A DNA stretch of 64,000 bases from Escherichia phage VTCCBPA_211. Of this stretch, positions 1 through 14,966 are shown one piece after another; the first letter of the stretch is position 1, and the number at the start of each line of letters is the position of its first letter. A model generated the notes under the pieces. That model was not told the origin of the DNA, searched no databases, and saw only the letters and a list, made by a program, of their open reading frames with translations. Where the stretch lies: the sequence record PP989838.1, one strand, 5' to 3'. A program made the position numbers and the translations under genes.

Positions 1-239
1 GCGCTCGCCGCGTGTTTCTCAAAAAGGGGGAGTCCTCATTTAAAAAAAGGGTTATTGGCAATGCCTTTACCTTCCCTTTCAACGTTCCACCTTTCCCCGT
101 GCCTACTCCCCGTAATTATTCCCCCGTGTATACTACCCAATACATTACCTACCCGTTTATTTAGTTCCCCTTTACTGAGTGAGAGAAAGGCCAGCACTGT
201 ACAGGCCAACTGATTAGTCTGCTAATAATGCCATTAATG

Positions 240-500
240 ATGGTTGACAGCTACAGAGTAGCGTCGTATTCCCCCATAGTTACGTTGATAATAGTTTCAA
301 TAGTAATGATTATGAGTGCAATAATGATATATGTATTAATTAAGTGTATGATTGTATTTCTTTTAATTATTCTTTTAAGAATGATTGTTTTTATTTCTTT
401 TAATCTTTTCCTTTTTCAGCGTGCCTTTGTGAGCGTAGCGAACGTCTTTGATGTTTGAGTTAACGATTGATAGCTACGAAGTAGCGTTATACTAATTATT
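240..500. promoter_or_regulatory. AT-rich segment (approx 280-420) flanked by AGTAGCG-containing repeats; candidate origin or regulatory region
   Basis: Read directly: agctacagagtagcgtcgtat (approx 247-267), gagcgtagcgaacg (approx 436-449), agctacgaagtagcgttatac (approx 473-493) flank a very AT-rich stretch with no convincing ORF. Confidence 0.25.
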
Positions 501-649
501 TAAGTGGTATATTATTACCGCACTATCTGGCTATGTTCCCCCGTGGTCTGTTCTGCGGTTGTATGCCCCGTCCTATATAGTAGAAATAGTTTACCCGTGG
601 TCGCTTGTCTTCCTTGTTAAGTAATAGTAAATTGAAGCCTATCAATTGA

Positions 650-841
650 GTGATTGGAGTGATAGAAATGATTATTCTAGTAATGATGGCAATGGCTGTA
701 GTGTTTCCTTTACTTGTTCTGATCGTTTGTGAAGTAGTGGAATTGTTCACTGATAGCAAGTTAAGCCCAAGAAACAAACCTAGTAAGTTTGATGGCGCTA
801 CTTTTAGTAGAAAGAAAGTTAGAAAGATGGTTGCAATGTAA
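650..841 (+). CDS. small hydrophobic membrane protein (probable start ATG 668)
   Basis: ORF with one predicted TM helix (MIILVMMAMAVVFPLLVLIV); first + strand ORF of the early block. Confidence 0.3.
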   Translation: MIGVIEMIILVMMAMAVVFPLLVLIVCEVVELFTDSKLSPRNKPSKFDGATFSRKKVRKMVAM

Positions 842-894
842 GAAAGCGTGTCCTATTATATCCCTATCTGATACATATCAAAGAGGCTTCACAA

Positions 895-1386
895 ATGACT
901 AAACCAATGCAGATGATTAATCTGGCAAGTTATGCGCTAGTCGCCGCGATCGGTGTTAGCGCGCTGGTAACATCTCTTTCTGATAAGGCTATTGCTGGCC
1001 CTATTTCTGCAAATGATGCCGCTAGTGTTTTCGCTAGTTCCATCAATAAAGGTTGGATGATTTGCAATGGTGCGGATAGTGATGGAAGTGCCATTGTGTT
1101 AAAAGTGAAATTTAGCAACGTTACTAATGAGGGCGTTCTCTTTCAGTCTAAGACGTTGGACAATCAGCCGAACAATGATCTGGTACTCAAGCGCACTGAT
1201 AACGATGCGGATATGGTGACGTATGGCACTGTAAAACGTTATAAAGACGTTAAAGCTGTAACCAATCTAGTGAGTTATGGCCCGGTTAATCAGTCGATGA
1301 TTGCCACCACGGTTTACAATAACGCTGATAATGCTGTTTATACTGTTCACATTAATCTAGCCAACTGCATCAAGGCCAGTAAGTAA
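895..1386 (+). CDS. early secreted/periplasmic protein with N-terminal signal peptide, unknown function
   Basis: SD aaagagg before ATG; hydrophobic N-terminus ASYALVAAIGVSALV. Confidence 0.55.
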   Translation: MTKPMQMINLASYALVAAIGVSALVTSLSDKAIAGPISANDAASVFASSINKGWMICNGADSDGSAIVLKVKFSNVTNEGVLFQSKTLDNQPNNDLVLKRTDNDADMVTYGTVKRYKDVKAVTNLVSYGPVNQSMIATTVYNNADNAVYTVHINLANCIKASK

Positions 1387-1413
1387 ATAACCAATTTTCA
1401 GGAGTAACAAAAA

Positions 1414-1665
1414 ATGAGTAACGAAGCGATTAAATTATCCAGCGGTGTTTCTTGTTTTGTGTGTGATACTTTTATCTCGTTCGGCTTGGAAGAAGGTTGC
1501 GTTATAATCCCTACCGTTGCCTTTTGTTCCATGAGTTTTAGCGAGGCTAAAAGATGGCTCCAATTGGTGCGCATTGATATAAATCGCGATGACTTCCGTT
1601 CAATTTACAATGACGGTGGTTTGTCGCTTGCTGGTCTTCTGGATTGTGATTTGCCAAAATGGTGA
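1414..1665 (+). CDS. hypothetical early protein
   Basis: ORF with SD caggag upstream; Cys-rich. Confidence 0.5.
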   Translation: MSNEAIKLSSGVSCFVCDTFISFGLEEGCVIIPTVAFCSMSFSEAKRWLQLVRIDINRDDFRSIYNDGGLSLAGLLDCDLPKW

Positions 1666-1871
1666 TAAAAATGATTCATGATTATCTTTGGCGTTGCTTG
1701 TTCGTTGTTACAGTGGCGTTGTTCGTCGCTGATATGCTTTATTCTTACATCCTTTGAGGTCCGGTTGTGTTGTTTCTGTTTTTGTTTGCCATTGGCTTCA
1801 TTTCTTTAAATTATTTACTGATTGTTGCCGCTCTCGATGTTATTAATCTCACCATTAAAGGTTGATTGGCT

Positions 1872-1967
1872 ATGTGGTTTATTAGATTCGTCGTTAAAAC
1901 GGTTGTAGGCTTCTTTCTGGTCATTCTTCTGTTAGGTGTCCTTCTATCGGCTATGGGTAATGCTTAA
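1872..1967 (+). CDS. small hydrophobic peptide (31 aa), speculative
   Basis: ATG 1872, TAA 1965-1967; translation MWFIRFVVKTVVGFFLVILLLGVLLSAMGNA is one TM helix. Confidence 0.2.
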   Translation: MWFIRFVVKTVVGFFLVILLLGVLLSAMGNA

Positions 1968-2359
1968 ATCCATAGGCTTAATCTTTCTCCTGTATTGTGC
2001 CGTGGTCATGCCTATGGTCATAATCTATCTGATGCTCTAATCCTTCCTATAAGCGCCGCTATGGCGCTTTTCTGTTTTCTAAGGTGATTGTATTCCTTAC
2101 TCCCTTTTAGTTCGCTGTAGTGCGTTTTAGGCCGTTAAATATCGATTTACAAGCCGTTTCCTATGATGTACCGCGTGCGTGCGCTCTTTTACTCTCCCAC
2201 TATGAAAAAAGTTTAAAATATTTTGCTTTACCCTATTGCATCCCTCACTGATTAATGTATACTTCATTTCATCGGGTACGATGTAAAACATACAAGGCAA
2301 GAAATTGCCCCGCTCTTTAAAAATCAGGCTAGAAAGTGAAAATATTCTTAAAAAGAGTA

Positions 2360-2388
2360 TTGACACCAGAAAAAGCCTGATACATAAT
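2360..2388 (+). promoter_or_regulatory. sigma70-type early promoter P1
   Basis: TTGACA (2360-2365), 17-nt spacer, CATAAT (2383-2388); A-rich UP-like tract upstream. Confidence 0.6.
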
Positions 2389-2509
2389 TAGCACACAGTC
2401 AGCGATGACTTGAAAAATCCCGCTCTTTAAAAACTTATCATCTTGCCCTTTCGCACAGAATCACGCGAGAAAGAGGGATAGAAAAGAAAAGAAGATGATA
2501 AAAAAGAGA

Positions 2510-2538
2510 TTGCAAACGTGGTTAAAGTAGTTCATACT
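2510..2538 (+). promoter_or_regulatory. sigma70-type early promoter P2
   Basis: TTGCAA (2510-2515), 17-nt spacer, CATACT (2533-2538); upstream aaaaagaga tract. Confidence 0.5.
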
Positions 2539-2814
2539 AACCACAAGTTAGCAAAACATCGCTAACTAGTTCCCAAATCAACGTATCGCGGGAAAGGTGG
2601 CACATAGTGCAGCGAGTAGTTCGGGATTAGGCGCCCCGTTAATGAATAAGTAAGCCTTTAATGATGCAGTGATTAGCAGACACTATAAAAGGCTAAAAAC
2701 GCTCTTTAACAAAATGAATCATGAGTTAAGCCTTATCGCTTAATCTTCAACCCAACAAAGCGGGTTGATATATCCTCCCAATAGAGGGAACGACGAAAAA
2801 GATTAAAAAAGTGG

Positions 2815-2843
2815 TTGACGGCGAAAACATCATGGTCCATAAT
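2815..2843 (+). promoter_or_regulatory. sigma70-type early promoter P3
   Basis: TTGACG (2815-2820), 17-nt spacer, CATAAT (2838-2843); A-rich tract upstream. Confidence 0.6.
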
Positions 2844-3615
2844 GAGCACACTCAAGCAAAACACCGCTTCAGTGAAAAGCGAAACAACGGCTTACAGTTG
2901 CGTAGTGTGAGAAAGCACACTGACAGATTTACCGCTCTTTAATAATTTAAACATTCTCCTATATCGGTTGCATATGCTGGAAGATAATAACCATCGGAAA
3001 GCATACCAGATAAAACGGTGTAAGGCCCCTAAACTATCAGGGTAAACAGTCTTACAATCCCTTAACTGGAAACGTCACCACTGTTAAACGGATTCATTGA
3101 GTACACGCAACGGCTTAAACTAATCGCCCACGGTTAAAGGGTAGCGGCGGCCATCGCTAACAAGGTGCTACAATGAAAGAAGTTTATCAGGGTAGGCAAG
3201 TCCGACAAATTAACGCCCAATTGAGGGCGGCGGGGGATGGTTAAAAAGTGGCAAATTGCTATTTAACAATAAGGTTTAATGCGAACGTTTACGATGTGAA
3301 CGGCTTGAGATTCGTCTTATGACGGAAGTACATAGTCGGGTTATGTAGTAAACCCGCCGAAAGATATAAAACGCCGGAATATTAGGCGGTCAATGATCTC
3401 TTTCCGCAATAACCTCCCGTAGTGGGCGATGGTTAGCGGTTAGGAGTTGGCACAAAGGATAAGCGGGAGCGAAAACAAAGTAGACGATATTGCCGACGGT
3501 TACAGCAATGTAATTAAATAGAGTCGGACGCATAGCCTTATTGTGATGATTGATCATCGCTATCAGGTCGGCTTCGTTTATAGCGACTAATTAAAGATAC
3601 CAGATGAAACATCAC

Positions 3616-3664
3616 GGATAAGGGGGCGGCAAGGTTAACTCCTGATAAGACCGCCCCGCTTATC
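3616..3664. repeat. imperfect inverted repeat (about 13 bp arms, 21-nt spacer)
   Basis: ggataagggggcgg ... ccgccccgcttatc read directly. Confidence 0.35.
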
Positions 3665-3765
3665 AATAATTACTTAACAATGAGTGGTTATCGATAAGTC
3701 AACAGTGACTTAAAAAGCTCATAGAGAGCGGGGCATAGTGCCCTTACAATTGAAAGGTGAATATC

Positions 3766-4665
3766 ATGGCTAAAATCTTTACTCTGGTTAACGAATCTGG
3801 TTTTAATGCTCTGGCTAACAATATCCGTAGCAATAATGCAGCGATCAAACAGGATGTTTCTAATTTTCTGTTAGGGCACTTACAGCACTTCCGTAGCAAC
3901 GGTAAAAAGTTAGACGTATTGCAGTCGGCGGTTGATTTTCTGTTAACCGAACGTTTCCGCGATATGGATGTTATTGCTACCGCAATCACTTTCTTAACTC
4001 CTATCAAGTTTAACACTGATGCGGCGAATGGTCGTAAGAAGTGGATTAATCTGGAAGGTGAAGCGAAAGCGAAAGAAGATGCGAAAGAAGCGCAAATTAA
4101 AACCAAAATGGAGCAAAACCGCGCTCGCTGGTCAAACGCTTTCGAAAACTTCGCGTTAGGTCGTGAAATTGAAGTCGATAACCCTAACTTCTTCAAAGGT
4201 TGCAATGACAACGTAGCGGCACACCTGCAAATTCCGGCAAAGAATAAAGAAGACTTTAACCAAGATATTTACGCTTTGGTTGAACGCTTGAATGCAATCC
4301 GTATTGAAGCCAAATTACTGGCTGATGAGCGCAACGGCGCAACCAGTGATAATACTATCGCCTTAAGTGAAGAAGTGGGCAAGGTTAAAAAGTCCTTTGA
4401 TTCACTCATCAAGAAAGTCACGGCATCGACGGTAGCGATCTCAGATGATTATCTGATGAACGCATCAAGCAAGGAGCTGGAATCACTCGATTCATACGCT
4501 GATGAAATGGAAAAGACTGTTGCAGCTATGCAGGAGAAGTTAGAAAGTCTGCGCGGTCGTATCTCTTCAACGGTTGCTACCCGTACCGAACAAGCTGCGA
4601 AAGAAGAAGAGGAAGAAGTATTGCGTAAAGCTGCTGAAATTATGGCGGCACGTCAGGCGGCATAA
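3766..4665 (+). CDS. early protein, unknown function (acidic/coiled C-terminal half)
   Basis: ATG 3766 preceded by SD gaaaggtga; 299 aa ORF followed by intrinsic terminator. Confidence 0.7.
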   Translation: MAKIFTLVNESGFNALANNIRSNNAAIKQDVSNFLLGHLQHFRSNGKKLDVLQSAVDFLLTERFRDMDVIATAITFLTPIKFNTDAANGRKKWINLEGEAKAKEDAKEAQIKTKMEQNRARWSNAFENFALGREIEVDNPNFFKGCNDNVAAHLQIPAKNKEDFNQDIYALVERLNAIRIEAKLLADERNGATSDNTIALSEEVGKVKKSFDSLIKKVTASTVAISDDYLMNASSKELESLDSYADEMEKTVAAMQEKLESLRGRISSTVATRTEQAAKEEEEEVLRKAAEIMAARQAA

Positions 4666-4688
4666 GTAAGACAATCTAAATAAACATA

Positions 4689-4720
4689 AGGCGCTATCTT
4701 AACGGGTAGCGCCTTTTCTT
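4689..4720 (+). terminator. rho-independent terminator
   Basis: ggcgcta...tagcgcc hairpin followed by ttttcttt. Confidence 0.6.
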
Positions 4721-4766
4721 TATCAGTGCATTGATTCAGTGCATTAATCAAAGAATCTAATCAAAG

Positions 4767-4994
4767 GTGACGATCATGTTAATTACACATACCACGATTT
4801 ATCGGAATCTTGTCAACGGTCAACATTACCGCCTATCTAAAAAGTATGGCGTTGAATGTAAATGCGTTATTACCGGTGAATGGTATCCGTCACCAATGAA
4901 GATTGAAACGTTGGAACGTGAAGCGATCAGCTATATTATCACGCAAGAAACAACGTTAGGCCGTATCTTAAGAAAGCTGGGATTGAGAAAATGA
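4767..4994 (+). CDS. hypothetical small protein
   Basis: ORF; stop overlaps next start (ATGA) indicating translational coupling. Confidence 0.55.
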   Translation: MTIMLITHTTIYRNLVNGQHYRLSKKYGVECKCVITGEWYPSPMKIETLEREAISYIITQETTLGRILRKLGLRK

Positions 4995-5215
4995 TATTCA
5001 GTAATAATTTTGGCAAGTGTCCTATTTGTGAGAAGCATCGCAGCACGGGAAACCATCGCAAGTGTAGTAAGATATTACAGCGCCAACGTGATAACAACCA
5101 TTGGGATACTGTGCACACTAACCAGCGTAAAGAAGAAGTTAGGAAAATGGCTGTTAAAGCGTCGTTTGCTCAATCAACCCGTATCGAACATATTCAAAGG
5201 TATCAAGCATTATGA
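4991..5215 (+). CDS. hypothetical small protein with CxxC motif
   Basis: ATGA overlaps at both ends; GKCPICEKH. Confidence 0.5.
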   Translation: MIFSNNFGKCPICEKHRSTGNHRKCSKILQRQRDNNHWDTVHTNQRKEEVRKMAVKASFAQSTRIEHIQRYQAL

Positions 5216-5421
5216 TCACTAATATTTCAGAGTTTAAGAAAGCGCCATCTCGTTTGTTAGGTCGTCGTGTTATATATCTTTACAGCAATAAAGGTAAATG
5301 TACAACCGGACAAATTACAACGGTGAGTAGTACCAACAAAACATTACTAAAATTATGCGTAACTATGGATGATGGTACAATCCTGCTACGTAGTTGGAAG
5401 TCATTTAGTTTACTCGATTAA
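5212..5421 (+). CDS. hypothetical small protein
   Basis: ATGA overlap with upstream gene. Confidence 0.5.
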   Translation: MITNISEFKKAPSRLLGRRVIYLYSNKGKCTTGQITTVSSTNKTLLKLCVTMDDGTILLRSWKSFSLLD

Positions 5422-5490
5422 GTTATTTGTTCAAGCCTATCGCCTTGGTGGGCTTGCCCGATATAACTTATCACTGAAAGGAGTGAGATT

Positions 5491-5934
5491 ATGGCTAAAT
5501 CTAAAATCAGTATGAAGGGCGGGCGTTGTTTTTCTATCTCTGAACTGGAGAAAGAGAAGCCGAAGGCAACCAATTACATTAGTAAGCGCAGTTTAAAACG
5601 TCGTGCTGCAAAGGCTGAAGCTGAATCCTATATCCCTTCTAGTGTGGCAAAACGTGTAGGTCATCGCGTCCATCGTGCTGATGCGTTGTTGTTAGCTGAT
5701 CATAAACGTTCTTTGTTAAAGAGCGGGGGAGCTAAAACAGAAGAAGAGAAGAAATTAGAAATATTCTGTAATGGTCGCACCCGTGGTAAACAGAAGTTTA
5801 AGGGTAGCACGAAAGACCCTCAGGCTTTCCCTAAGACAAGCCAGTGTGCACCTGATGTTTTCTACGCAGACAGTAAACACAAGTGGGGCGTTGAAAAATA
5901 CATTGACCCTATCAAAGAGGCGAGGGTTAAGTAG
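5491..5934 (+). CDS. basic (Lys/Arg-rich) early protein, unknown function
   Basis: SD gaaaggag; 147 aa ORF. Confidence 0.6.
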   Translation: MAKSKISMKGGRCFSISELEKEKPKATNYISKRSLKRRAAKAEAESYIPSSVAKRVGHRVHRADALLLADHKRSLLKSGGAKTEEEKKLEIFCNGRTRGKQKFKGSTKDPQAFPKTSQCAPDVFYADSKHKWGVEKYIDPIKEARVK

Positions 5935-5947
5935 TAGGAATATATCC

Positions 5948-5979
5948 CCTCTTTTAGTACTATGACGCTCTTTCTGTAG
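5948..5979 (+). promoter_or_regulatory. conserved intergenic motif CCTCTTTTAGTACTATGACGC (copy 1; copy 2 at 11708-11740)
   Basis: Near-identical roughly 30-nt block immediately after stop codons at two loci. Confidence 0.35.
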
Positions 5980-6013
5980 CGTCGTGCCCTCTCCCCATTT
6001 GAAGCTTCCGCAT

Positions 6014-6037
6014 AGCCGCCTTTGAGCGGCTTTTTGC
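6014..6037 (+). terminator. putative intrinsic terminator
   Basis: agccgc...gcggct hairpin followed by ttttt. Confidence 0.45.
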
Positions 6038-6098
6038 GTTGCTGTAAGTGCATTTGCGAGTGTATTTATAGCAACGGTCATGTGTTGCTTTCAGGTTT

Positions 6099-6126
6099 GC
6101 CCCGGCTACGGCTGGGGCTTTTTTAT
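6099..6126 (+). terminator. intrinsic terminator
   Basis: gccccggc tacg gctggggc hairpin followed by tttttta. Confidence 0.6.
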
Positions 6127-6173
6127 GCCCGTAAAACAGGAGGTAGCAAGTTCTGATAACAACGGCACAGCTA

Positions 6174-6563
6174 ATGTTGACATTGACTATTTATTATGAG
6201 GCAGGGAATCAGCCAACCGCATGTAAAGCTATGGTTGCGGATACCGTGATAAATAGAATGGCCCAACGAAAACTGACCGCTGAACAGGTGATAAGACAAA
6301 AGAACCAGTTTGAGTGGATTCCGGTACTATTAAAACAGGAGAAACCTTATAAACGTTATGTAAAGCTGATTCGTGATAAAAATCCGATGACTAAGCAAGC
6401 CATTGGAGAAAGCGAGCGACTTGCTAAACGTGCCCTTAAGAAGAATTATGTTCCGCTGTACAGTGGGACTTACTTTCAGAGTAAGAGCGAAGGGGTGCCA
6501 AAATGGTATGCCAATCCCATGTATTGTGGTGATTTAGTGTTCGATAATAGCTCTAGGGAATAA
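6174..6563 (+). CDS. putative SleB-like cell-wall hydrolase domain protein
   Basis: Motifs EAGNQPTACKAMVADTVINRM and QKNQFEW resemble the SleB/Hydrolase_2 family (recollection). Confidence 0.45.
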   Translation: MLTLTIYYEAGNQPTACKAMVADTVINRMAQRKLTAEQVIRQKNQFEWIPVLLKQEKPYKRYVKLIRDKNPMTKQAIGESERLAKRALKKNYVPLYSGTYFQSKSEGVPKWYANPMYCGDLVFDNSSRE

Positions 6564-6762
6564 TCACTAGTGCCAGATTTGACAAACTAAATTCCTTTAT
6601 AAACCAACCACTTAGTAAATTTATTGAAAAAGATGGTAGTATTCTGGGACTATGAGTAATGCTCTGTATATAGACCCTTTGAAAATTTCTTAGAAAATAA
6701 GTTTACTAAATATAACTTACTTAAATAATATTACTTTTAATCTCTGATAAAGGGTAAATAAT

Positions 6763-7059
6763 ATGACTTTAGAAGTATATAAATTCCTTTTTGTAAGCTG
6801 TTTAACTATCAGCGTTATAGGATTTATTATCCTTAGAAACAAAGCAGCAAGCTGGGAGAGAATGTATAAATCCCTAGTCCGAGTGGATGAGATGTATAAT
6901 GAGAAAGTTAAAGTGACTCTTAACGATCTTATTATGCAAGTTGAAGACAGAAACAAACGTCTTCAGAACCTCAATCATGAAGTATTGCGCCTTGCTCGTG
7001 CTAATGAAGACTTGCGAGTGGCTATTGCTAAGCAGCAGGAGATTAACAGTGATAATTGA
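6763..7059 (+). CDS. membrane-anchored coiled-coil protein, unknown function
   Basis: N-terminal TM (FLFVSCLTISVIGFIIL) then helical region. Confidence 0.5.
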   Translation: MTLEVYKFLFVSCLTISVIGFIILRNKAASWERMYKSLVRVDEMYNEKVKVTLNDLIMQVEDRNKRLQNLNHEVLRLARANEDLRVAIAKQQEINSDN

Positions 7060-7060
7060 T

Positions 7061-7285
7061 ATGAACCATCCACCAAAGAAGTTAACTCTTGGGGATCTAG
7101 ATTCAGGTGATGTGTTCCAATTCTTTGTGAACTCTGATGATTTTTATATGGCTTCCTGTAGATTTAACAAATCGGATGGTTGTAGAAATTATATGAACCT
7201 TTCGAACGGTGTGATCTCAGCAGATCGTAATACTGTGGTTGTTAAGAAGATTAACAATGCTCGACTTACAGATAAGGTGGATTAA
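7061..7285 (+). CDS. small-protein paralog family A, member 1
   Basis: ATG 7061 right after upstream stop; motif LTLGDLDSGDVFQF shared with six other ORFs. Confidence 0.55.
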   Translation: MNHPPKKLTLGDLDSGDVFQFFVNSDDFYMASCRFNKSDGCRNYMNLSNGVISADRNTVVVKKINNARLTDKVD

Positions 7286-7287
7286 CA

Positions 7288-7524
7288 GTGAAAGTTAATA
7301 TTAAATCTGATCGTACAATGCTTCGATTAAATAACATGAAGCCGGGCGTTCTGTTTGAGCGTAAAGAGTCCCTTTATATTAGAACTGACACATTGTACGC
7401 AGATAACTATGTGAACTGTGTTGATGTGGTAACTGGAAAGCTAATGCCTATTAAACGAGATGAAGTCTGCCAAGTACGCAGTGATCTCCACATAACAAAC
7501 ATAGAGGCTAAAGATGAAGATTGA
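7288..7524 (+). CDS. small-protein paralog family A, member 2
   Basis: Tandem with 7061 and 7514 genes; similar size and motif layout. Confidence 0.5.
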   Translation: MKVNIKSDRTMLRLNNMKPGVLFERKESLYIRTDTLYADNYVNCVDVVTGKLMPIKRDEVCQVRSDLHITNIEAKDED

Positions 7525-7768
7525 TCTGAACCTTAAAGCTAAAGAATTGCGTGTGGGTGATTTGAAACTTGGTGATGTGTTCCAAGTTAAGGCAACATGT
7601 ATTGATTATTACATGATTGTTCAGCTATACACACCACATGTGTCAGAGACTGATCTTCGGAATGGTTGTGTAGTTCTTAGTTTAAGCACCAATCAAGTAA
7701 TGAAGCTAGATTCAAACTTACCTGTTTCAGTCATCCATGATGTAGTAATTACTAATAAAGAAAAGTAA
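7514..7768 (+). CDS. small-protein paralog family A, member 3
   Basis: LRVGDLKLGDVFQV motif. Confidence 0.55.
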   Translation: MKIDLNLKAKELRVGDLKLGDVFQVKATCIDYYMIVQLYTPHVSETDLRNGCVVLSLSTNQVMKLDSNLPVSVIHDVVITNKEK

Positions 7769-7776
7769 CATCGACT

Positions 7777-7880
7777 TATAGCCCTTGTGTTTATCAGAGG
7801 GCTATGTGAGGGTGTTCCTCATTAACTTATTAATTCAGGCATATGCCACACCGCTAGGGAGAGCTTGCTCGAACATCCGG
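7777..7880 (+). promoter_or_regulatory. conserved intergenic element (hairpin + GTGAG + GCTAGGG...AACATCCG), copy 1
   Basis: atagccct...agggctat hairpin at 7777-7805 then gctagggagagcttgctcgaacatccgg at 7853-7880; near-identical copy at 12041-12150. Confidence 0.4.
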
Positions 7881-8126
7881 TGTTAGACTAAAACCTGTTA
7901 ATTTTCGAAAGACTTTCTGATATGTAGGGGTACATATTGGTTTGGGATTCAGGAGACTTCCTAGGGGTAGGGAGTCTTCACCAGTTGGGATAAGAGATAG
8001 CTCTAGAACCTGAACTCTTAGGCAGAGAAGGTCGGCAATGAGTACGCGGTCAGAATTAGTCTACTGACTAGGGCTATCCCTTATATCAACTGGCAATAAT
8101 GCCTCCACTAACAAAGAGAGATAGAT

Positions 8127-8267
8127 ATGAAAGTATCAACCAAACGTATGAACCGCCCTGAACGTATGGATGCAGTAGCTAATGGTGCTCTGAAACTGGA
8201 AGGCTTCTGGATTCATGCGATGTCAGCCATCCGTAACAAGCAAGGCAATTGGACCTATGGTAACTAA
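8127..8267 (+). CDS. small ORF (46 aa), speculative
   Basis: SD aaagagag before ATG 8127. Confidence 0.3.
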   Translation: MKVSTKRMNRPERMDAVANGALKLEGFWIHAMSAIRNKQGNWTYGN

Positions 8268-8457
8268 CAAAGAACAAAAAGCTATCTGTCGTTGTGCTCC
8301 TTTCTTCTTTGCAGAAGACGGGGATGTGTTCAGTAAGCTTGCACAAGAGTTAGGTTGTTCTCGAACTGGTGCTAAGGTAGTCTTTCATAAGTGGCTTATC
8401 TATTCTGACTCTTACGTGGCTATCAAATTAAGAGAACTGCAAATACACACGCTTTGA
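8215..8457 (+). CDS. hypothetical small protein (start uncertain, possibly ATG 8257)
   Basis: ORF overlapping previous small ORF; contains GDVF like family A. Confidence 0.35.
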   Translation: MRCQPSVTSKAIGPMVTNKEQKAICRCAPFFFAEDGDVFSKLAQELGCSRTGAKVVFHKWLIYSDSYVAIKLRELQIHTL

Positions 8458-8538
8458 ATAAAAGGCTGCCCAATCGGGTGGCCTTTGTTGTTTTAATTAA
8501 GGGTCAGCTCTTACTTAAACTAACAAGAGGAAGCTCAA

Positions 8539-8715
8539 ATGTCTAAGCAAACAATCAAACATACGCAAGCTGGTTACTCTTATGTTAACTCTCCTTGTTG
8601 TGGCGCTCGTGTCAATATGGTTAAGGAAGAGGTTCGTATCGTTCAGCGTGGCGCTACTGTTGTTCGTTCATGCTGTGTCTGTGGTAATGATATTTTTATC
8701 AAAGGTAAAGTATGA
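8539..8715 (+). CDS. small zinc-ribbon-like protein (58 aa)
   Basis: SD aagagga; CC..., ...CCVC cysteine pairs; ATGA overlap with next gene. Confidence 0.45.
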   Translation: MSKQTIKHTQAGYSYVNSPCCGARVNMVKEEVRIVQRGATVVRSCCVCGNDIFIKGKV

Positions 8716-8963
8716 AAAACTTTCAAGCTGCACCAATTACTAAAGTGATTGCAGTTAATGATGTGATGATGGCTGTTCCTCTGAACACTCGTTACATTGC
8801 AATTGACAAGATGGGTTATGTATGGGCTTGGAAGATTAAGCCTAGCTATAACGCACTGTTTGATGAGTTTGTTTGTACTGGTACTTACAGTCCTACATTC
8901 TTGGGTTTGTTTAGTGAGTTTGATGGTCAGTATAAAATCATCACACTCCCTGCTTGTGCTTGA
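8712..8963 (+). CDS. hypothetical protein, paralog of 8971-9204
   Basis: YIAIDKMGYVWAWKIKP vs YLATDSNGEVYGFTHKPEI. Confidence 0.5.
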   Translation: MKNFQAAPITKVIAVNDVMMAVPLNTRYIAIDKMGYVWAWKIKPSYNALFDEFVCTGTYSPTFLGLFSEFDGQYKIITLPACA

Positions 8964-8970
8964 GGTTCTG

Positions 8971-9204
8971 ATGGAGACTAAAGAGGTTAAATATTTTGGT
9001 GAAGTTGTTAAAGTAGGTAACTCTATAAGATATTTAGCAACTGATAGCAACGGCGAAGTGTATGGCTTTACCCATAAGCCAGAAATTCGTGGATATGCTT
9101 GGGCACTCCCTTATGGAACTCCATTCGAGACTGGAGGAGCTGTTTATCTTAATGATAATGGACCTATGTTTGCATGGAAAACATCTCTCGTTGAGGTAGT
9201 GTAA
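8971..9204 (+). CDS. hypothetical protein, paralog of 8712-8963
   Basis: ATG 8971 in frame of the longer track ORF; shared motif with upstream gene. Confidence 0.5.
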   Translation: METKEVKYFGEVVKVGNSIRYLATDSNGEVYGFTHKPEIRGYAWALPYGTPFETGGAVYLNDNGPMFAWKTSLVEVV

Positions 9205-9206
9205 TT

Positions 9207-9371
9207 ATGTTCAAGTGGTTTAAACGTCTATTCCATCTGCACGATTGGGTAATCCTTGAAAAGTATACACTAAAGATCACTGATGATTATGGCGATACGA
9301 AACATAAAGGTTTACGCTACATCATGCAGTGTAAAACGTGTGGTCATATCACCAAGCGAGATATGATCTAA
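9207..9371 (+). CDS. small CxxC protein (54 aa), speculative
   Basis: ATG 9207 3 nt after upstream stop; CKTCGH. Confidence 0.35.
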   Translation: MFKWFKRLFHLHDWVILEKYTLKITDDYGDTKHKGLRYIMQCKTCGHITKRDMI

Positions 9372-9379
9372 ATAATTCT

Positions 9380-9456
9380 GCGCCCTTAGTTCAATTGGAC
9401 AGAACATCGGATTTCTAATCCGTCGGTTACAGGTTCGAATCCTGTAGGGTGCGCCA
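9380..9456 (+). tRNA. tRNA-Arg (anticodon UCU)
   Basis: Hand-folded cloverleaf: acceptor GCGCCCT/AGGGTGC, D-arm GTTC..GAAC, anticodon loop TTTCTAA, T-arm ACAGG TTCGAAT CCTGT, 3' CCA encoded. Confidence 0.8.
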
Positions 9457-9475
9457 AATCGAATAGGAGGTAGCC

Positions 9476-9775
9476 ATGAGTTGGGGTGGTGTAATATCCT
9501 TAATCTGTATCTTCCTTGTCTGCATAGCCCTTACAGGCTGCGTACAGAGCCGTCCTGATGGATGGTGTGCAGTAGCAGTGGATGGTATTTGTGTATCTCG
9601 CTGGCATAAGGGTGAGAAGATTCCTTCTGGTGAGATTAATATGCGCTGGAACGGAGCAACCTGTTCTAATGCTAACCCTTCTATCAACGAAGAGAAGTCT
9701 ACACCGGATAATGTTGTTATTGATACAGCATTGTGGTGTGGTGGCTCTACGATTACAACCGGTAAGGAGTGGTGA
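9476..9775 (+). CDS. lipoprotein (lipobox LTGC), possibly superinfection-exclusion-like
   Basis: SD aggaggt; signal peptide plus lipobox ALTG|C; Cys-rich mature part. Confidence 0.55.
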   Translation: MSWGGVISLICIFLVCIALTGCVQSRPDGWCAVAVDGICVSRWHKGEKIPSGEINMRWNGATCSNANPSINEEKSTPDNVVIDTALWCGGSTITTGKEW

Positions 9776-9776
9776 T

Positions 9777-9974
9777 ATGAATTACACATCTACAAAGGTG
9801 TTAATTGATTCAATTAATAGCTCCTCAGAAGCTGTACAGGAGCGTTTAATACAAGATGTTAGCAATGACATTAAGTTCTTTGTTAAACGACGCCTGTTAG
9901 GTTCTAAGGCTTATTACAGAGCTAAAGCAGAGCTTACAAAGAGGGTGTTTCTCTTACACGGATTAGTGTATTAA
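9777..9974 (+). CDS. hypothetical small protein
   Basis: ATG 9777 just after upstream stop, SD ggagtgg. Confidence 0.45.
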   Translation: MNYTSTKVLIDSINSSSEAVQERLIQDVSNDIKFFVKRRLLGSKAYYRAKAELTKRVFLLHGLVY

Positions 9975-10268
9975 GAGCTTATCGTGAAGGATTCTTACGA
10001 GAGTCCTTTGAGATAGGACTTCAGATCTCCTATCAAACTAACATTCATGTAACTAGCCCATAAGGGCGTTACCCTTTAATAACCCAGCCCACTAAGGGGG
10101 CGGGAGTTTAGTGCTGGATTGGCTTTACGCTTATCCCTACAAAGGCAACCGATTGTTAGATCTTACATGCAATATTAACTAATAGGATAAGGGAGGATTC
10201 GTCCCCTCCCCCTATTTATTGAATCTTTATCTAAGCAAGTCTTATATAAATGTTTAATTGGAGGGTAT

Positions 10269-10580
10269 ATGAAACCTGAAAGAATTAGATGGACTCCTGA
10301 AGTTATAAAACAGCTAGAAGTCTTGGTTAATAATTATTCTTTAGAAACAGTTGCAGATATTATGGAAACAAACAAATCAGTTATTAGCAGAGCCTGCTCT
10401 AGTTTCCAGATAAAACGTAAACGTCAAAGAAAAGTCTGGTCTGAAGAAGAAGATCAGTTCCTTATCCGTAATGCTGGGTTCATGCCCATTCAGAGAATGG
10501 CTGACATGCTCGGTAGAAGTTATGCTGCTGTACAGAACAGGGCATGTATGCACCTTAACATTAGCCTAAAACTTAAATAG
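10269..10580 (+). CDS. putative DNA-binding (HTH/Myb-like) protein
   Basis: W..EE.. motif and basic KRKRQRK stretch. Confidence 0.45.
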   Translation: MKPERIRWTPEVIKQLEVLVNNYSLETVADIMETNKSVISRACSSFQIKRKRQRKVWSEEEDQFLIRNAGFMPIQRMADMLGRSYAAVQNRACMHLNISLKLK

Positions 10581-10588
10581 GAGTCAAG

Positions 10589-10819
10589 ATGAATTTTGAA
10601 CTAGTACCAAAAAGCAAAACACCCTCCAAGACTTTCTCTGACTTGGAGAATGGAGATGTTTTTCGTTTTATTGGTGACGATGTAGTCCCTAAATTCTGGA
10701 TAAAAACAGGGGAACATTCTGCAATGTGTGTTCGGAACCCTAAAGATATTTTCTTTCCGGTCCCTTTGTCCAATACTGTTGATCTGTTCGAATCTAAACT
10801 TATTATTCAGGGTAAATAG
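10589..10819 (+). CDS. small-protein paralog family A, member 4
   Basis: TFSDLENGDVFRF motif. Confidence 0.55.
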   Translation: MNFELVPKSKTPSKTFSDLENGDVFRFIGDDVVPKFWIKTGEHSAMCVRNPKDIFFPVPLSNTVDLFESKLIIQGK

Positions 10820-10820
10820 T

Positions 10821-11069
10821 ATGAAGATTACTCACAAGAAAGAAGAAGTGACTACGGTTGATCTCAACTCCCTTCCCAGCGGAGCAGTATTTAAATTCCC
10901 TGAGAGTGCTACTCTCTATGTTAAAGGGTCTGTGTCTGAAAGTCCTCATGTAACCGTTAACTCTGATCGAGCAATTACCCTTCGTTTATCCGATGGTAAC
11001 GTAACAGCACCTTCTATCTGGTGCCGAGTTGTTCCTGTGTCGGCAGAACTTTTGGTGGATAACACATAA
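10821..11069 (+). CDS. small-protein paralog family A, member 5
   Basis: ATG 10821 immediately after upstream stop; LNSLPSGAVFKF. Confidence 0.55.
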   Translation: MKITHKKEEVTTVDLNSLPSGAVFKFPESATLYVKGSVSESPHVTVNSDRAITLRLSDGNVTAPSIWCRVVPVSAELLVDNT

Positions 11070-11314
11070 TGAAAATCATCCCAAAGAAAAAGGATAATAC
11101 GGTACGATTGGAAACAATCATTCCTGGAAATCCTTTCGTGGTTCAGAACGGAAGTGCTTCTCCTCAATATTACATGAGGGTTGAAAATGCTTCTTGTAAC
11201 ATCCGTATAGCCAGTGGTTGGGTTCCTGTGGTAAACCTTTTCACAGGTGTACTATCTGTTAAAGGTCTTGACGATCAGGTAGAAATGATTCGTATGTCTG
11301 TGGTTCAGGAGTAA
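11069..11314 (+). CDS. small-protein paralog family A, member 6
   Basis: RLETIIPGNPFVVQ. Confidence 0.5.
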   Translation: MKIIPKKKDNTVRLETIIPGNPFVVQNGSASPQYYMRVENASCNIRIASGWVPVVNLFTGVLSVKGLDDQVEMIRMSVVQE

Positions 11315-11321
11315 CAAGTAG

Positions 11322-11570
11322 ATGAGCACCATTAGTATTAAAGTTAAGCATAAGAAAGAGAACATCCTCAGGGTTATGGATTTATTCAGAGCCGACGTCT
11401 TTACTTTAAAACAGTGTCCAACTTCCCATACCTACATGCTAACGAACCCGAGCAATGGTCTTAAGCCCGCTGGGGCGGTTAATCTGGGAACTGGAGAACT
11501 TCGGACAATTGCTGGTGATATGGTTGTTGATGAGAAGTTTAGTAAAGTCGAAATGATCTTAACTCCTTAG
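11322..11570 (+). CDS. small-protein paralog family A, member 7
   Basis: RVMDLFRADVFTL. Confidence 0.5.
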   Translation: MSTISIKVKHKKENILRVMDLFRADVFTLKQCPTSHTYMLTNPSNGLKPAGAVNLGTGELRTIAGDMVVDEKFSKVEMILTP

Positions 11571-11801
11571 GAAAACAAATGAGACTTAAAGCATATTCTT
11601 ATGACGATATGATTAACCAAAAAGGCTTCGGTCAACGACAGCCTGATGGTTCAATTATCTGGTTCGTAAACGGACAGAAAAAGGTAGCTAAATAAGCCCT
11701 CTTCTCTCCTCCTTTTAGTACTATGACGCCTCTCTGTGGGCGGCCCAATTTGCGTAGGGAATTCCCTCTACGCAGCCATGACTTTTTAAGGAATTTCCCC
11801 T

Positions 11802-12035
11802 ATGTCTAAAGTAAGCGCAATTGATGCAATCCGTCAACCATTCCAGTTCCAATCTAAATCAACCCAAACCTTCAGTGAGCCTAAGCAAATTCGCTTGGGC
11901 GGCACAGAAAAAACTGTGTTTGATCTGGCTAAAAATAAGAGCGTTACCGTAGTTGATGGTGGCACTCTGGTTAACGTTTCCCATCGAATCCGAACTGGCA
12001 AAACTGCCAAAGATCGTGCTAAGAAAGGCGAGTAA
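11802..12035 (+). CDS. hypothetical protein
   Basis: ORF followed by the conserved hairpin element. Confidence 0.5.
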   Translation: MSKVSAIDAIRQPFQFQSKSTQTFSEPKQIRLGGTEKTVFDLAKNKSVTVVDGGTLVNVSHRIRTGKTAKDRAKKGE

Positions 12036-12040
12036 CGCCT

Positions 12041-12150
12041 ATAGCCTTCTTCGGAGGGCTATGTGAGTTATTCTGACTCAACTAACCTAATCTTAATATA
12101 TTTCCCGTATGGGGCCGATGCTAGGGCGAGGAGTGTTCCTCAAACATCCG
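12041..12150 (+). promoter_or_regulatory. conserved intergenic element, copy 2
   Basis: atagccttcttcggagggctat hairpin then gctagggcgaggagtgttcctcaaacatccg. Confidence 0.4.
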
Positions 12151-12217
12151 TCGGATAGATATTTTAAGAGCAGGTTATCCACAGATATTGGGTAATATCT
12201 TTTTGTATTTAAAGCTT

Positions 12218-12246
12218 GACTCTTTTCGGAGAGTCCTTTTTTAAAT
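12218..12246 (+). terminator. intrinsic terminator
   Basis: gactct...agagtc hairpin followed by cttttttaaatt. Confidence 0.55.
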
Positions 12247-12261
12247 TCAACGAGAGGAAAT

Positions 12262-12414
12262 ATGTCTAAATTAGATTTAAAACTGCTAGCAGCAGCGGTA
12301 GTGATTTGTGCACTAGCACTGGTAACGCAGAGAACATCTGGATTTATTCAGTGTTTCTTTTCTGGGCAATCCACTTATCAGTGGGTTATTGACGAGTGTA
12401 AACAACAGGAGTAA
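12262..12414 (+). CDS. small membrane/secreted peptide (50 aa), speculative
   Basis: SD gagagga; hydrophobic LLAAAVVICALALV. Confidence 0.35.
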   Translation: MSKLDLKLLAAAVVICALALVTQRTSGFIQCFFSGQSTYQWVIDECKQQE

Positions 12415-12416
12415 GT

Positions 12417-12779
12417 ATGAATACACGTCCCATCAAGGGCAACGTTAATATTGAAACTCTGAACAAGGTTGCATCAAACCTCGGTGGAATGTCCAACGAT
12501 GAGCTTGAGCAAGAACTTGCTTGGATTGCAAATGGTATCAAAGTTGCTAAAGGTAAGATTGCTCGTGAGCAAAGCAACATGAAAGCTCACAAGTATATCA
12601 TCCGTCGTGCAAATGTGTTACCAGAGCGGGTTGTACATCTTGCCCGTAAAAACTACGCAGAAGCAAAGAAAGCTCTGGAAGAAGCTACTTTCCAGAAGCA
12701 CCAATTTATGAACAACTATCGAAACTTCCGAGATATTCTTTATATCCGTAAGTCGATTGAGTTGATTAAAAACCAATAG
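12417..12779 (+). CDS. hypothetical protein, first gene of the ligase operon
   Basis: ATG 2 nt after upstream stop. Confidence 0.55.
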   Translation: MNTRPIKGNVNIETLNKVASNLGGMSNDELEQELAWIANGIKVAKGKIAREQSNMKAHKYIIRRANVLPERVVHLARKNYAEAKKALEEATFQKHQFMNNYRNFRDILYIRKSIELIKNQ

Positions 12780-12790
12780 AGGTTGGTATA

Positions 12791-13984
12791 ATGTTTCCAG
12801 TAACATTAGAAGATACTGAAGGTAATGTTTTAACGGTTAGTCCTCCTTGTTATGGGTTCCTTCAGCTTCGCAACTATAATGGTGGCGTTGATGAAGACGA
12901 CGAATATGATGACTACTTCGACCCTAACATGTATGAGGCAACTCATGGATGGAACATGCACGTTCGAGTGTGGCATGAAGATGCTAACGTTCGTAGTGCT
13001 GATGGGGAAGAGTTCTTATTAAGTCGAGAGATGGATATGAGCAGTATTAAGCATATCTGGAACTCCGGAACTCACATGAAGATGTTAGGTTTTAGACGTT
13101 GGCGTGATGAAAAACCTGTATCCGCAGCTTTAGGTTGGGGTGCTATTGATTACGAAGGCGAGCTTAAAAACAACATCGAACGTTGGAACGACAAAAACCC
13201 TGAACACCGAACCACACCTCGTGCTGTACTGGAAGCTATGGAAGCATTTGTGGACAAAGATCGTCCCTCCTGTTTACGCTGGCACGATAAAGGTTTTATG
13301 GGGGTAGCAACTGAGAACATCCCTGCTGATCGTTGTCTGTTCTATTTGATGTTAGATCGAACCTTCTATTGTGAAGATGAAGAGAGTCAGGTTGAAACCT
13401 TCCTTCATAAATGGTTAGTTGAAGGCTGGACAATCCTTCAGGCTTACGTTTACTCACGAATGGTTAGTACCTACACTAACCTCTTGGGTGAAACGAAAGC
13501 TACTTTGGTTGGTAACGATTGGGATGCTTGTATCTTCCCAGCGTCGCTGTTTACAGTTGGCATGGCTAATAAATATGCTGAAGCATTTCAAGTGCCTTGG
13601 CGTCAACAGTCATATAGAGATGGGTGTGGTCATTTCCGTGATGAAGATTTTAAGTGGATTCATTATGAGAATGATGAAACAGCAGAATTACGAGTTAATA
13701 ACTCGATGTTCTTGCCGGTGATGCACCCCGACTTAGTAGAAAGTGAATCAGAAATCCTGAAATGTGACAACCTTCTGATTAACTTTGCTCGTCGGGTATC
13801 TAAAGATGAAAGAACAGCTGACAGATTAGTCTACGCTTATCGCGCTGAGACTAAAGATATGTTCAATATTTATAACATTATTCAGCGATTTAGTAGTGGA
13901 ACTCTGGACCAAAGTTCGGAGTATTCAGTGATTCCATCCTCTGAGTGGGATGGTATTATGAGCGGATTATTTTTAGGAAAATAA
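12791..13984 (+). CDS. operon protein of unknown function (397 aa)
   Basis: SD gaggttgg; no family recognised by eye. Confidence 0.7.
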   Translation: MFPVTLEDTEGNVLTVSPPCYGFLQLRNYNGGVDEDDEYDDYFDPNMYEATHGWNMHVRVWHEDANVRSADGEEFLLSREMDMSSIKHIWNSGTHMKMLGFRRWRDEKPVSAALGWGAIDYEGELKNNIERWNDKNPEHRTTPRAVLEAMEAFVDKDRPSCLRWHDKGFMGVATENIPADRCLFYLMLDRTFYCEDEESQVETFLHKWLVEGWTILQAYVYSRMVSTYTNLLGETKATLVGNDWDACIFPASLFTVGMANKYAEAFQVPWRQQSYRDGCGHFRDEDFKWIHYENDETAELRVNNSMFLPVMHPDLVESESEILKCDNLLINFARRVSKDERTADRLVYAYRAETKDMFNIYNIIQRFSSGTLDQSSEYSVIPSSEWDGIMSGLFLGK

Positions 13985-13994
13985 AAGGTTAGTT

Positions 13995-14966
13995 ATGTCA
14001 ATCTCCACAACGATCGTACCTCTGAATCTTCAACAAGATTTAGGGGAACAGAAGTTCTTAGGTCGTGGATGCTTCGGTATCCACAACTACATGCAAGCCC
14101 AGTGTGTAAATGACATTAATGGTGAAGTTATCATGGGAGAAGAGCATTATCGACGCTTCAACCGTGATATCAACTTGCAGCTGGAGATGTTGAATTACTG
14201 GACTCACTCTTTTTATAATCACCTTCCATCTGATATTGAAAAGAACTTGATTGAAACAGCAGACATTATGAACTCCATGTCTTGCTATCGTGACGTATTT
14301 ACGATCACTTCAGCGAATAGTGTTGCTGTCAACCTTCGTGAGCATCCAGCAGATCAGATCTTCACAGGACTTATGCTCTTTCGTAGTATTCTGGAAGGGC
14401 AATATCGTGGAATGGATTTCCTAGCAGAAGGAATTGAAGACAGGGAAGAGTGGCTGAAGCGTAAACGCATCGGAATCGCTCTAGTGTTAGCTGGGTTGGG
14501 TCGTGACTTCTTCGGTGGATGGTCTCAACGAGGAAGAGCCAATGGGAGTAGTGAAAGCACCTCTATTGTTATTAACAACAATATGTCAGCAGCAGCTTTC
14601 CTTCCTTTGGTTGTAGACTCTGATGAATACACGAAACAAGTATGGGTTCAAAACCCCTTCGGTGTTGGCGACAACGAGAATGGTTATGTTCGTAACCATA
14701 ACCAAGAAGCCTTACGAAGATTTGCTCGTGCTAAAGATCAAGACCCGGACGAGTATGAAACAATGTCAGAGTGGTTAAGACTCTGGTCCAACTGTCATGG
14801 TCACAAACGTGAAGCAATAGATAATAAGTTGGAAAACATTACAGTCCAAAACTTTACAGCCCGACTGATTCAACGTACTGGACCAAACTCTGGTCTTACT
14901 ACTGAAGAAGTTGGTAACACAATCTCATCTCTCTTTTCTGAACTAGTGGAGTATTACAATGACTAA
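13995..14966 (+). CDS. operon protein of unknown function (323 aa)
   Basis: SD aaaagg; no family recognised. Confidence 0.7.
   Translation: MSISTTIVPLNLQQDLGEQKFLGRGCFGIHNYMQAQCVNDINGEVIMGEEHYRRFNRDINLQLEMLNYWTHSFYNHLPSDIEKNLIETADIMNSMSCYRDVFTITSANSVAVNLREHPADQIFTGLMLFRSILEGQYRGMDFLAEGIEDREEWLKRKRIGIALVLAGLGRDFFGGWSQRGRANGSSESTSIVINNNMSAAAFLPLVVDSDEYTKQVWVQNPFGVGDNENGYVRNHNQEALRRFARAKDQDPDEYETMSEWLRLWSNCHGHKREAIDNKLENITVQNFTARLIQRTGPNSGLTTEEVGNTISSLFSELVEYYND

Follow-up and report, generated by a model that had tools for sequence, protein, structure and literature searches.

We examined seven small genes in a 64,000-nt stretch of Escherichia phage VTCCBPA_211 (PP989838.1; the whole stretch is called the window below) that a preliminary description had grouped as a family of roughly 75–85 amino acid early proteins in two tandem arrays. 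All seven open reading frames (ORFs) are intact on the plus strand at the positions given there and encode proteins of 74–84 amino acids; we call them A1 to A3 (block A) and B1 to B4 (block B; Table 1). The mechanical ORF list extends A1 and B2 further upstream; the alignment of the family profile starts exactly at the ATG codons chosen in the preliminary description, and the gene upstream of A1 stops at position 7059. The genes are separated by 1, 2 and −11 nt in block A and by 8, 1, −1 and 7 nt in block B, and a recognisable Shine-Dalgarno sequence precedes five of the seven. Because of this tight packing, the arrangement suggests co-transcription and translational coupling of both blocks. 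The encoded proteins are near neutral (isoelectric point (pI) 6.0–9.3, net charge −1.3 to +2.7), with B3 (pI 8.9) and B4 (pI 9.3) on the basic side.

A megablast search with positions 6500–12500 matched 109 phage records, led by phiEco32, MN03, SkaterBoy_Bas90 and SU10 at ~92–93% nucleotide identity and 84–87% query coverage. Based on these matches, the window derives from a phiEco32-like podovirus (Gordonclarkvirinae, Kuravirus). By synteny, the orthologs in phiEco32 are gp115 (A2), gp114 (A3), gp98 (B1), gp97 (B2), gp96 (B3) and gp95 (B4), while comparison of synteny and identity revealed no counterpart of A1 in that phage.

The similarity among the seven proteins is uneven at the pairwise level and significant for all of them once deeper profiles are used. 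Smith-Waterman z-scores against shuffled sequences reached 10.3 for A1-A3, 6.2 for A1-B1, 5.1 for B3-B4, 4.9 for A1-B3 and 4.5 for A2-B2, and about half of the member pairs lack a significant score. Hidden Markov models (HMMs) built from six members recovered the one left out in the cases of A1, A3, B2 and B4 (E 1e-7 to 1e-3), A2 only marginally (E 0.01), and missed B1 (E 0.6) and B3. Against PHROG profiles, the members matched at E 1e-20 to 1e-49 (for instance A2 with phrog_16423 at 2e-49, B2 with phrog_7832 at 1e-28 and B4 with phrog_12612 at 5e-29), and cross-matches between these profiles join all seven into one connected network. We also aligned the ortholog groups, using 120 homologs from databases together with eight related genomes. 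Compared with each other by hhalign, each of the seven groups was joined to at least one other with a score of 27–49, against a maximum of 15 in reversed-sequence controls, although some individual group pairs did not exceed the control.

An independent HMM was constructed from 29 distant metagenomic relatives, none of which is BLAST-similar (E<1e-3) to any window member. From the 641 six-frame ORFs of the window, it retrieved exactly the seven proteins, with E-values from 8.8e-15 (B3) through 7.6e-13 (A2), 8.4e-11 (B2), 6.3e-10 (B4) and 2.5e-7 (A1) to 2.7e-5 (B1), and the next-best ORF followed at E=1.1. B1 is the most divergent and weakest member, aligning to this model with residues 12–49 of its N-terminal half only; in the hhalign comparison it scored 39.9 over 61 columns with the group of phiEco32 gp109 and 28 with the A1/A3 group. 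Profile searches of the window ORFs yielded no eighth member. The hhalign and independent HMM statistics exclude chance similarity, and on this profile evidence the seven ORFs are one homologous family, so that the proposed paralogous set in two tight tandem blocks holds.

Table 1 Features of the early region of the window; amino acid identities refer to the related genomes compared.
Feature	Position	Strand	Description	Amino acid identity to relatives
A1	7061-7285	+	74 aa; intact ORF; core GDVFQF...FYM	31-57%, or absent; most variable member between relatives
A2	7288-7524	+	78 aa; intact ORF; GTG start; Shine-Dalgarno AAGGTGG
A3	7514-7768	+	84 aa; intact ORF; 11-nt overlap with A2	92, 69, 54-63%
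B1	10589-10819	+	76 aa; intact ORF; 8 nt after the Myb-like/D5-like regulator gene	99 or 78%, or absent
B2	10821-11069	+	82 aa; intact ORF	96, 90, 58-61, 28-30%
B3	11069-11314	+	81 aa; intact ORF; start shares 1 nt with B2 stop	98 or 68% (two allele classes)
B4	11322-11570	+	82 aa; intact ORF	49-70%
Sigma70 promoter-like site	2360-2388	+	near-consensus, from consensus scan; gene-poor spacer; TTGACA-17-CATAAT
Sigma70 promoter-like site	2815-2843	+	near-consensus, from consensus scan; gene-poor spacer; TTGACG-17-CATAAT
SleB-like cell-wall hydrolase domain protein	6174-6563	+	Pfam Hydrolase_2, E 7e-8
tRNA-Arg(TCT)	9380-9456	+	between the two blocks
Myb-like/D5-like regulator gene	10269-10580	+	before block B; weak Myb-like DNA-binding match

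The sequence cores quoted in the preliminary description (GDVFQF, GDVFRF, GAVFKF, GNPFVV and ADVFTL, followed by YYM) are present in the alignment. Extended to 141 sequences, the superfamily signature reads M-K-I; L-x-x-G-[DE]-V-F; Y-Y-M-K-T; V-x-L-x-T-G-x-L; V-x-P-V-x-A-x-L-x-I, in which the Phe of the second element is invariant. The columns conserved throughout the superfamily are mostly hydrophobic or Gly and, within the confident core of the structural models, match predicted strands and turns. The remaining columns approach maximal entropy, the segment between strands beta2 and beta3 ranges from 6 to 34 residues, and the surface varies freely. No catalytic motif occurs in the family, nor is any basic or aromatic residue conserved on its surface; its median pI is 5.4 and thus acidic.

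The members are confidently predicted to fold as a five-stranded SH3-like beta-barrel. Structure prediction, which the preliminary description had named as a check, modelled window members in this way: the AlphaFold2 model of B1 (predicted local distance difference test score 81.9) has five strands, and A3 and B1 have BFVD fold matches in common. The assignment to this fold class is based on five antiparallel strands arranged as a small barrel and on top structural neighbours from the same class. The best neighbours were the SH3-like domain of uL2, Spt5 KOW domains, Tudor domains, EF-P and the C-terminal domain of UvrD, the last of which binds RNA polymerase.

The family reaches far beyond this locus and lineage. 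When 1.84 billion representatives of 50% identity clusters were searched exhaustively with the family HMM, 526 of them matched at E<=1e-3. Nearly all of the best 150 of these are 68–90 amino acids long and aligned end to end. The matches also include a few two-domain tandem fusions of the family domain, one protein with about six repeats, and two long, spurious matches to repeat proteins; no fusion to an enzymatic or other known domain occurred, and in about 520 clusters the domain stands alone. The tandem pairs and the fusions of two domains may point to dimer formation. Gp21 of coliphage N4 (74 amino acids) belongs to the family by a full-length profile match (family HMM E 3e-18), size and motifs (MK[IV], G-[DE]-V-F, Y-Y-M-K, V-x-L-x-x-G and V-x-P-V). 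Together with nine PHROGs (9955, 16423, 10911, 7832, 7431, 12612, 6570, 8365 and 34455), it has the same size, MK[IV] start and G-D-V-F, Y-Y-M-K and V-N-L-x-T-G elements as the window members. The databases split the family into these unrelated-looking PHROGs, all of "unknown function", yet single metagenomic members match up to seven of the nine at once. Two members were found in an 11.7-kb stretch of Vibrio phage 1.101.O. Otherwise, tblastn of the family consensus against 50,697 phage records matched only Kuravirus-like isolates. From these comparisons, the family consists of ancient stand-alone proteins of ~75–85 amino acids. They form a superfamily of 526 clusters or more, N4 gp21 among them, and seven divergent members lie in this window.

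The sampled members lie within runs of small hypothetical genes, on contigs of 37–67% G+C. These contexts include a 141-kb phage-like contig, a 183-kb SPbeta-like contig on which two copies stand in tandem, one contig with 67% G+C, and a 52-kb distant Kuravirus relative with a tandem pair upstream of an amidoligase/GATase cluster. The six-repeat protein adjoins PARP, GT4-conflict and MT-A70 genes on one contig. A further contig with DUF932, DUF4313 and reverse transcriptase (RVT_1) genes had raised the idea that the family is typical of the leading regions of conjugative plasmids; we dropped it, as tblastn of the consensus against plasmids gave no match.

The family was previously described as unassigned, and this still applies. 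Neither Pfam, NCBIfam nor PADLOC matched the window members. At E<=1, the seven and ten distant members found no KOW, Tudor, FeoA or Sm match in Pfam, and the seven with three distant members found no match among the PADLOC models. A PDB profile search gave a best E of 0.15, to unrelated proteins, and a word-indexed homolog search with the broad alignment yielded 68 proteins, none of them named, and no further information. No searched source names any family member, and we found no description of the paralog family in the literature on phiEco32, SU10, YF01 and BASEL. Some labels in related records look wrong: a 77 amino acid family member of vB_EcoP_EcoN5 is labelled "Endolysin", and a 98 amino acid ortholog of ORF 6763–7059, which has no Pfam match, is labelled "DNA helicase". 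The records with doubtful annotations are EcoN5 and IMEP8, as well as phiEco32 gp116 and Bas90_0114.

To follow the family among close relatives, we scanned the early regions of eight related genomes and found 6–11 members in each (Bas90 10, EP335 11, phiEco32 9, Bas88 5–6). Groups beyond the set in this window are represented by phiEco32 gp113, gp109 and gp104 and by one group downstream of block B. In the other phages sampled, there were 1–2 copies per locus, with a single one in the 20 kb of N4 read, so that the family is rightly called expanded in Kuravirus-like genomes. Across the eight relatives, individual members are present or absent and fall into bimodal, mosaic allele classes at 28–99% amino acid identity, whereas neighbouring genes at 5491, 6174, 8127 and 11802 are 95–100% identical in seven of the eight.

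For every window member, the best non-orthologous relative from outside scores higher than any of its six neighbours, and no DNA-level repeat was found between the copies. The copies are therefore old lineages and not a recent local burst, and we rejected recent tandem duplication on the same grounds. The ratio of nonsynonymous to synonymous divergence (dN/dS) lies between 0.03 and 0.31 for every member (A2 0.03–0.31, B3 0.07–0.27, B4 0.11) at dS of up to 2.8, which indicates real genes under long-term purifying selection and leaves positive selection unsupported as the source of diversity. Judged from these comparisons, the diversity goes back to old alleles that are exchanged rather than to any positive selection that could be detected. 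The term "diversifying", as used before, thus applies in the sense of deep divergence and allele swapping between near-identical genomes; it does not apply in the sense of a recent radiation.

According to the gene orientation and GC skew, all genes from the window start to ~44 kb lie on the plus strand. The syntenic region of phiEco32 belongs to the early class, transcribed by the host sigma70 RNA polymerase (PMC8948821, PMC9965538, PMC12276001), and synteny with gp95–98 and gp114–115 of this class bears out the early-region position proposed for the seven genes (PMC8948821, PMC9965538). Two promoter-like sites occur in a gene-poor spacer (Table 1), at the position where the early promoters of phiEco32 and SU10 also sit (PMC8948821, PMC4281155). 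They are probably the early promoters that would drive the plus-strand early genes, including both blocks. On the plus strand of positions 1–14,000, we counted 23 terminator-like hairpins against 10.6 expected in shuffled sequence.

Our tentative interpretation, to which we give a little less than an even chance, is that the paralogs are binding modules without enzymatic activity that serve host takeover or counter-defence. It is based on the conserved barrel core combined with a variable surface and loop, the lack of a catalytic signature, the stand-alone architecture, the tandem organisation elsewhere, the early position and the accessory-like turnover. Both blocks would probably be co-transcribed from host-sigma70 early promoters and be translationally coupled. 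During the first minutes after infection, each paralog would then use its variable surface to bind its own target among the proteins of the host or its defences, and the outcome of this binding would be host takeover or counter-defence. The phages would maintain a changeable set of such modules (6–11 in Kuravirus-like genomes) traded by recombination. In agreement with this, unrelated phages (N4, the Vibrio phage and the SPbeta-like contig) carry members among their small early or accessory genes, and the six-repeat fusion lies next to conflict genes. The Gordonclarkvirinae are reported to be unusually resistant to restriction, with no modification pathway or inhibitor known (BASEL study, PMC11990801); counter-defence functions are therefore to be expected among their unassigned genes, which provides a motive but not evidence.

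Several observations weigh against this interpretation. The D5-like regulator gene and the genes at 9207 and 9476 are equally mosaic, so that the variability is not specific to the family, and the dN/dS ratios reveal no positive selection. Known defence-related models in PADLOC gave no match, and with their near-neutral charge the window members are no DNA mimics like Ocr or ArdA. Binding of nucleic acids also occurs among SH3-like barrels. Early expression is assigned from gene position only, and proteomics of SU10 lysates detected no family member, although small proteins are easily missed (PMC4281155). Strong hairpins at 4688–4715, 6099–6118 and 8461–8486 lie between the early promoters and the blocks; early transcripts may thus depend on read-through or antitermination, a possibility already raised for the related phage 7-11 (PMC8948821). 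From the SU10 proteomics, we also dropped a role as virion proteins. A stronger version of the binding-module interpretation would see a modular inhibitor scaffold, in which each paralog, through its variable beta2-beta3 loop and surface, neutralises a different immune or housekeeping protein of the bacterium. Such an "antibody-like" repertoire of 6–11 changeable copies, shared with N4 and many uncultured phages, would explain the reported broad resistance of the Gordonclarkvirinae to restriction and other defences; we regard it as quite unlikely.

The structural neighbours also speak for a different role. Like the KOW, Tudor, Sm and uL2 barrels, the proteins might attach to RNA, DNA, ribosomes or RNA polymerase and adjust phage or host transcription or translation early in infection. 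The basic B3 and B4, the position of block B directly behind the Myb-like/D5-like DNA-binding regulator gene and the highly conserved non-coding stretch directly after block A are all consistent with such nucleic-acid- or machinery-associated regulators. However, Pfam KOW, Tudor and Sm remain unmatched even at the permissive threshold, and, taken over all its members, the family is acidic and shows no conservation of basic or aromatic residues on the surface. Furthermore, RNA polymerase from phiEco32-infected cells carried only gp36 and gp79 (PMC12276001), which makes stable binding of the polymerase in particular improbable. Altogether, we consider a regulatory role unlikely.

A connection to the phages' own machinery is suggested by gene order. 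In the 52-kb relative, the tandem pair lies ~3 kb upstream of the same Peptidase_C26/COOH-NH2 ligase/Amidoligase_2/GATase_6 cluster that starts soon after block B in the window. Instead of acting on host targets, the paralogs might serve as adaptors, chaperones or substrates of this amidoligase/ATP-grasp/glutamine-amidotransferase cluster, which lies just downstream in Kuravirus-like genomes. Yet the stretches read of N4 (20 kb), the Vibrio phage (11.7 kb) and the SPbeta-like contig contain no such cluster, and copy number and alleles of the family vary while the amidoligase neighbours stay conserved, which renders this role very unlikely. We regard it as extremely unlikely that the genes are cargo which the phage could do without, having little or no function, or that they resemble each other by chance or composition. 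Some close relatives do lack individual members, and the SU10 lysate yielded none (PMC4281155). But chance is excluded by the hhalign and independent HMM statistics, and idle cargo is at odds with long-term purifying selection, the confident fold prediction and persistence in hundreds of clusters on contigs spanning 37–67% G+C.

We also compared the family with known systems. With FeoA, the C-terminal domain of DtxR/IdeR, uL2, the KOW domains of Spt5/NusG and Tudor domains, it has the fold class in common and no detectable sequence relationship. The members contain no identifiable glycine-lysine motif of KOW domains or aromatic cage of Tudor domains and stand alone, without being domains of larger proteins. 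Nor does the family belong to the MazF/CcdB-type toxins, which are recognised by a length of ~100–115 amino acids, a PemK or CcdB match in Pfam and a paired antitoxin gene. Ocr and ArdA are strongly acidic in contrast to the near-neutral window members, and the beta-barrel models differ from the helical fold of Ocr. None of the members corresponds to a defence component in PADLOC-DB. Parallels exist with anti-CRISPR and anti-restriction gene clusters, which, like these presumably early genes, encode small, non-enzymatic, early-expressed proteins in tight tandem arrays with presence/absence and allelic variation among genomes that are otherwise nearly identical. Those clusters usually hold unrelated proteins, whereas all members of this family have one predicted fold. 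We conclude that the genes represent a real domain family without a name, which has expanded to an unusual degree in Kuravirus-like phages. It belongs to a familiar class of small early phage proteins, here with a common fold, and is not a new kind of system.

Up to ~9% of the genes of a Kuravirus-like phage (6–11 of ~125) belong to this one family, and with the nine "unknown" PHROGs merged into an SH3-like superfamily, annotators have one common reference point. The seven short genes, together with the K-12-infecting relative Bas90 and its ten copies, form a compact, testable set of candidates that could help to explain how these phages, popular in therapy, evade restriction and other defences although they have no known inhibitors. 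Should the paralogs be ordinary regulators, the practical gain would be limited to better annotation; should they constitute a repertoire of defence inhibitors, their importance would rise sharply.

Directly after A3 follows a gene-free stretch of 358 nt (7769–8126, plus strand) that is unannotated in any record. Over its full length, it is 97.5–98.9% identical in many Kuravirus genomes, above the flanking coding genes. Its RNA folds with z = −2.95 against shuffled sequences, and it has no Rfam match. A core of ~67 nt (~8004–8070), including the identical 22-mer TCGGCAATGAGTACGCGGTCAG, recurs just upstream of the antiterminator N gene in P22-like Salmonella phages; the 80-nt shared core alone folds no better than shuffles. 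The stretch may serve as a leader or as an element for processing or antitermination. The 46 amino acid ORF directly downstream (8127–8267, plus strand) is 96–100% identical in six of the eight relatives compared, and its N-terminus is rich in Arg and Lys (MKVSTKRMNRPERM...). To the N protein of a P22-like phage, it shows no similarity.

Between the blocks, the adjacent plus-strand ORFs 8712–8963 and 8980–9204 have a motif in common (RYIAIDKMGYVWAWKIKPS versus RYLATDSNGEVYGFTHKPE; BLASTP E 0.001 over 19 residues). Neither has a Pfam match, and the two may represent another paralog pair, unrelated to the family. ORF 8980–9204 is present in only one of the eight relatives compared (Bas90). The regulator gene preceding block B occurs in two allele classes among the relatives, at 95% and ~64% identity.

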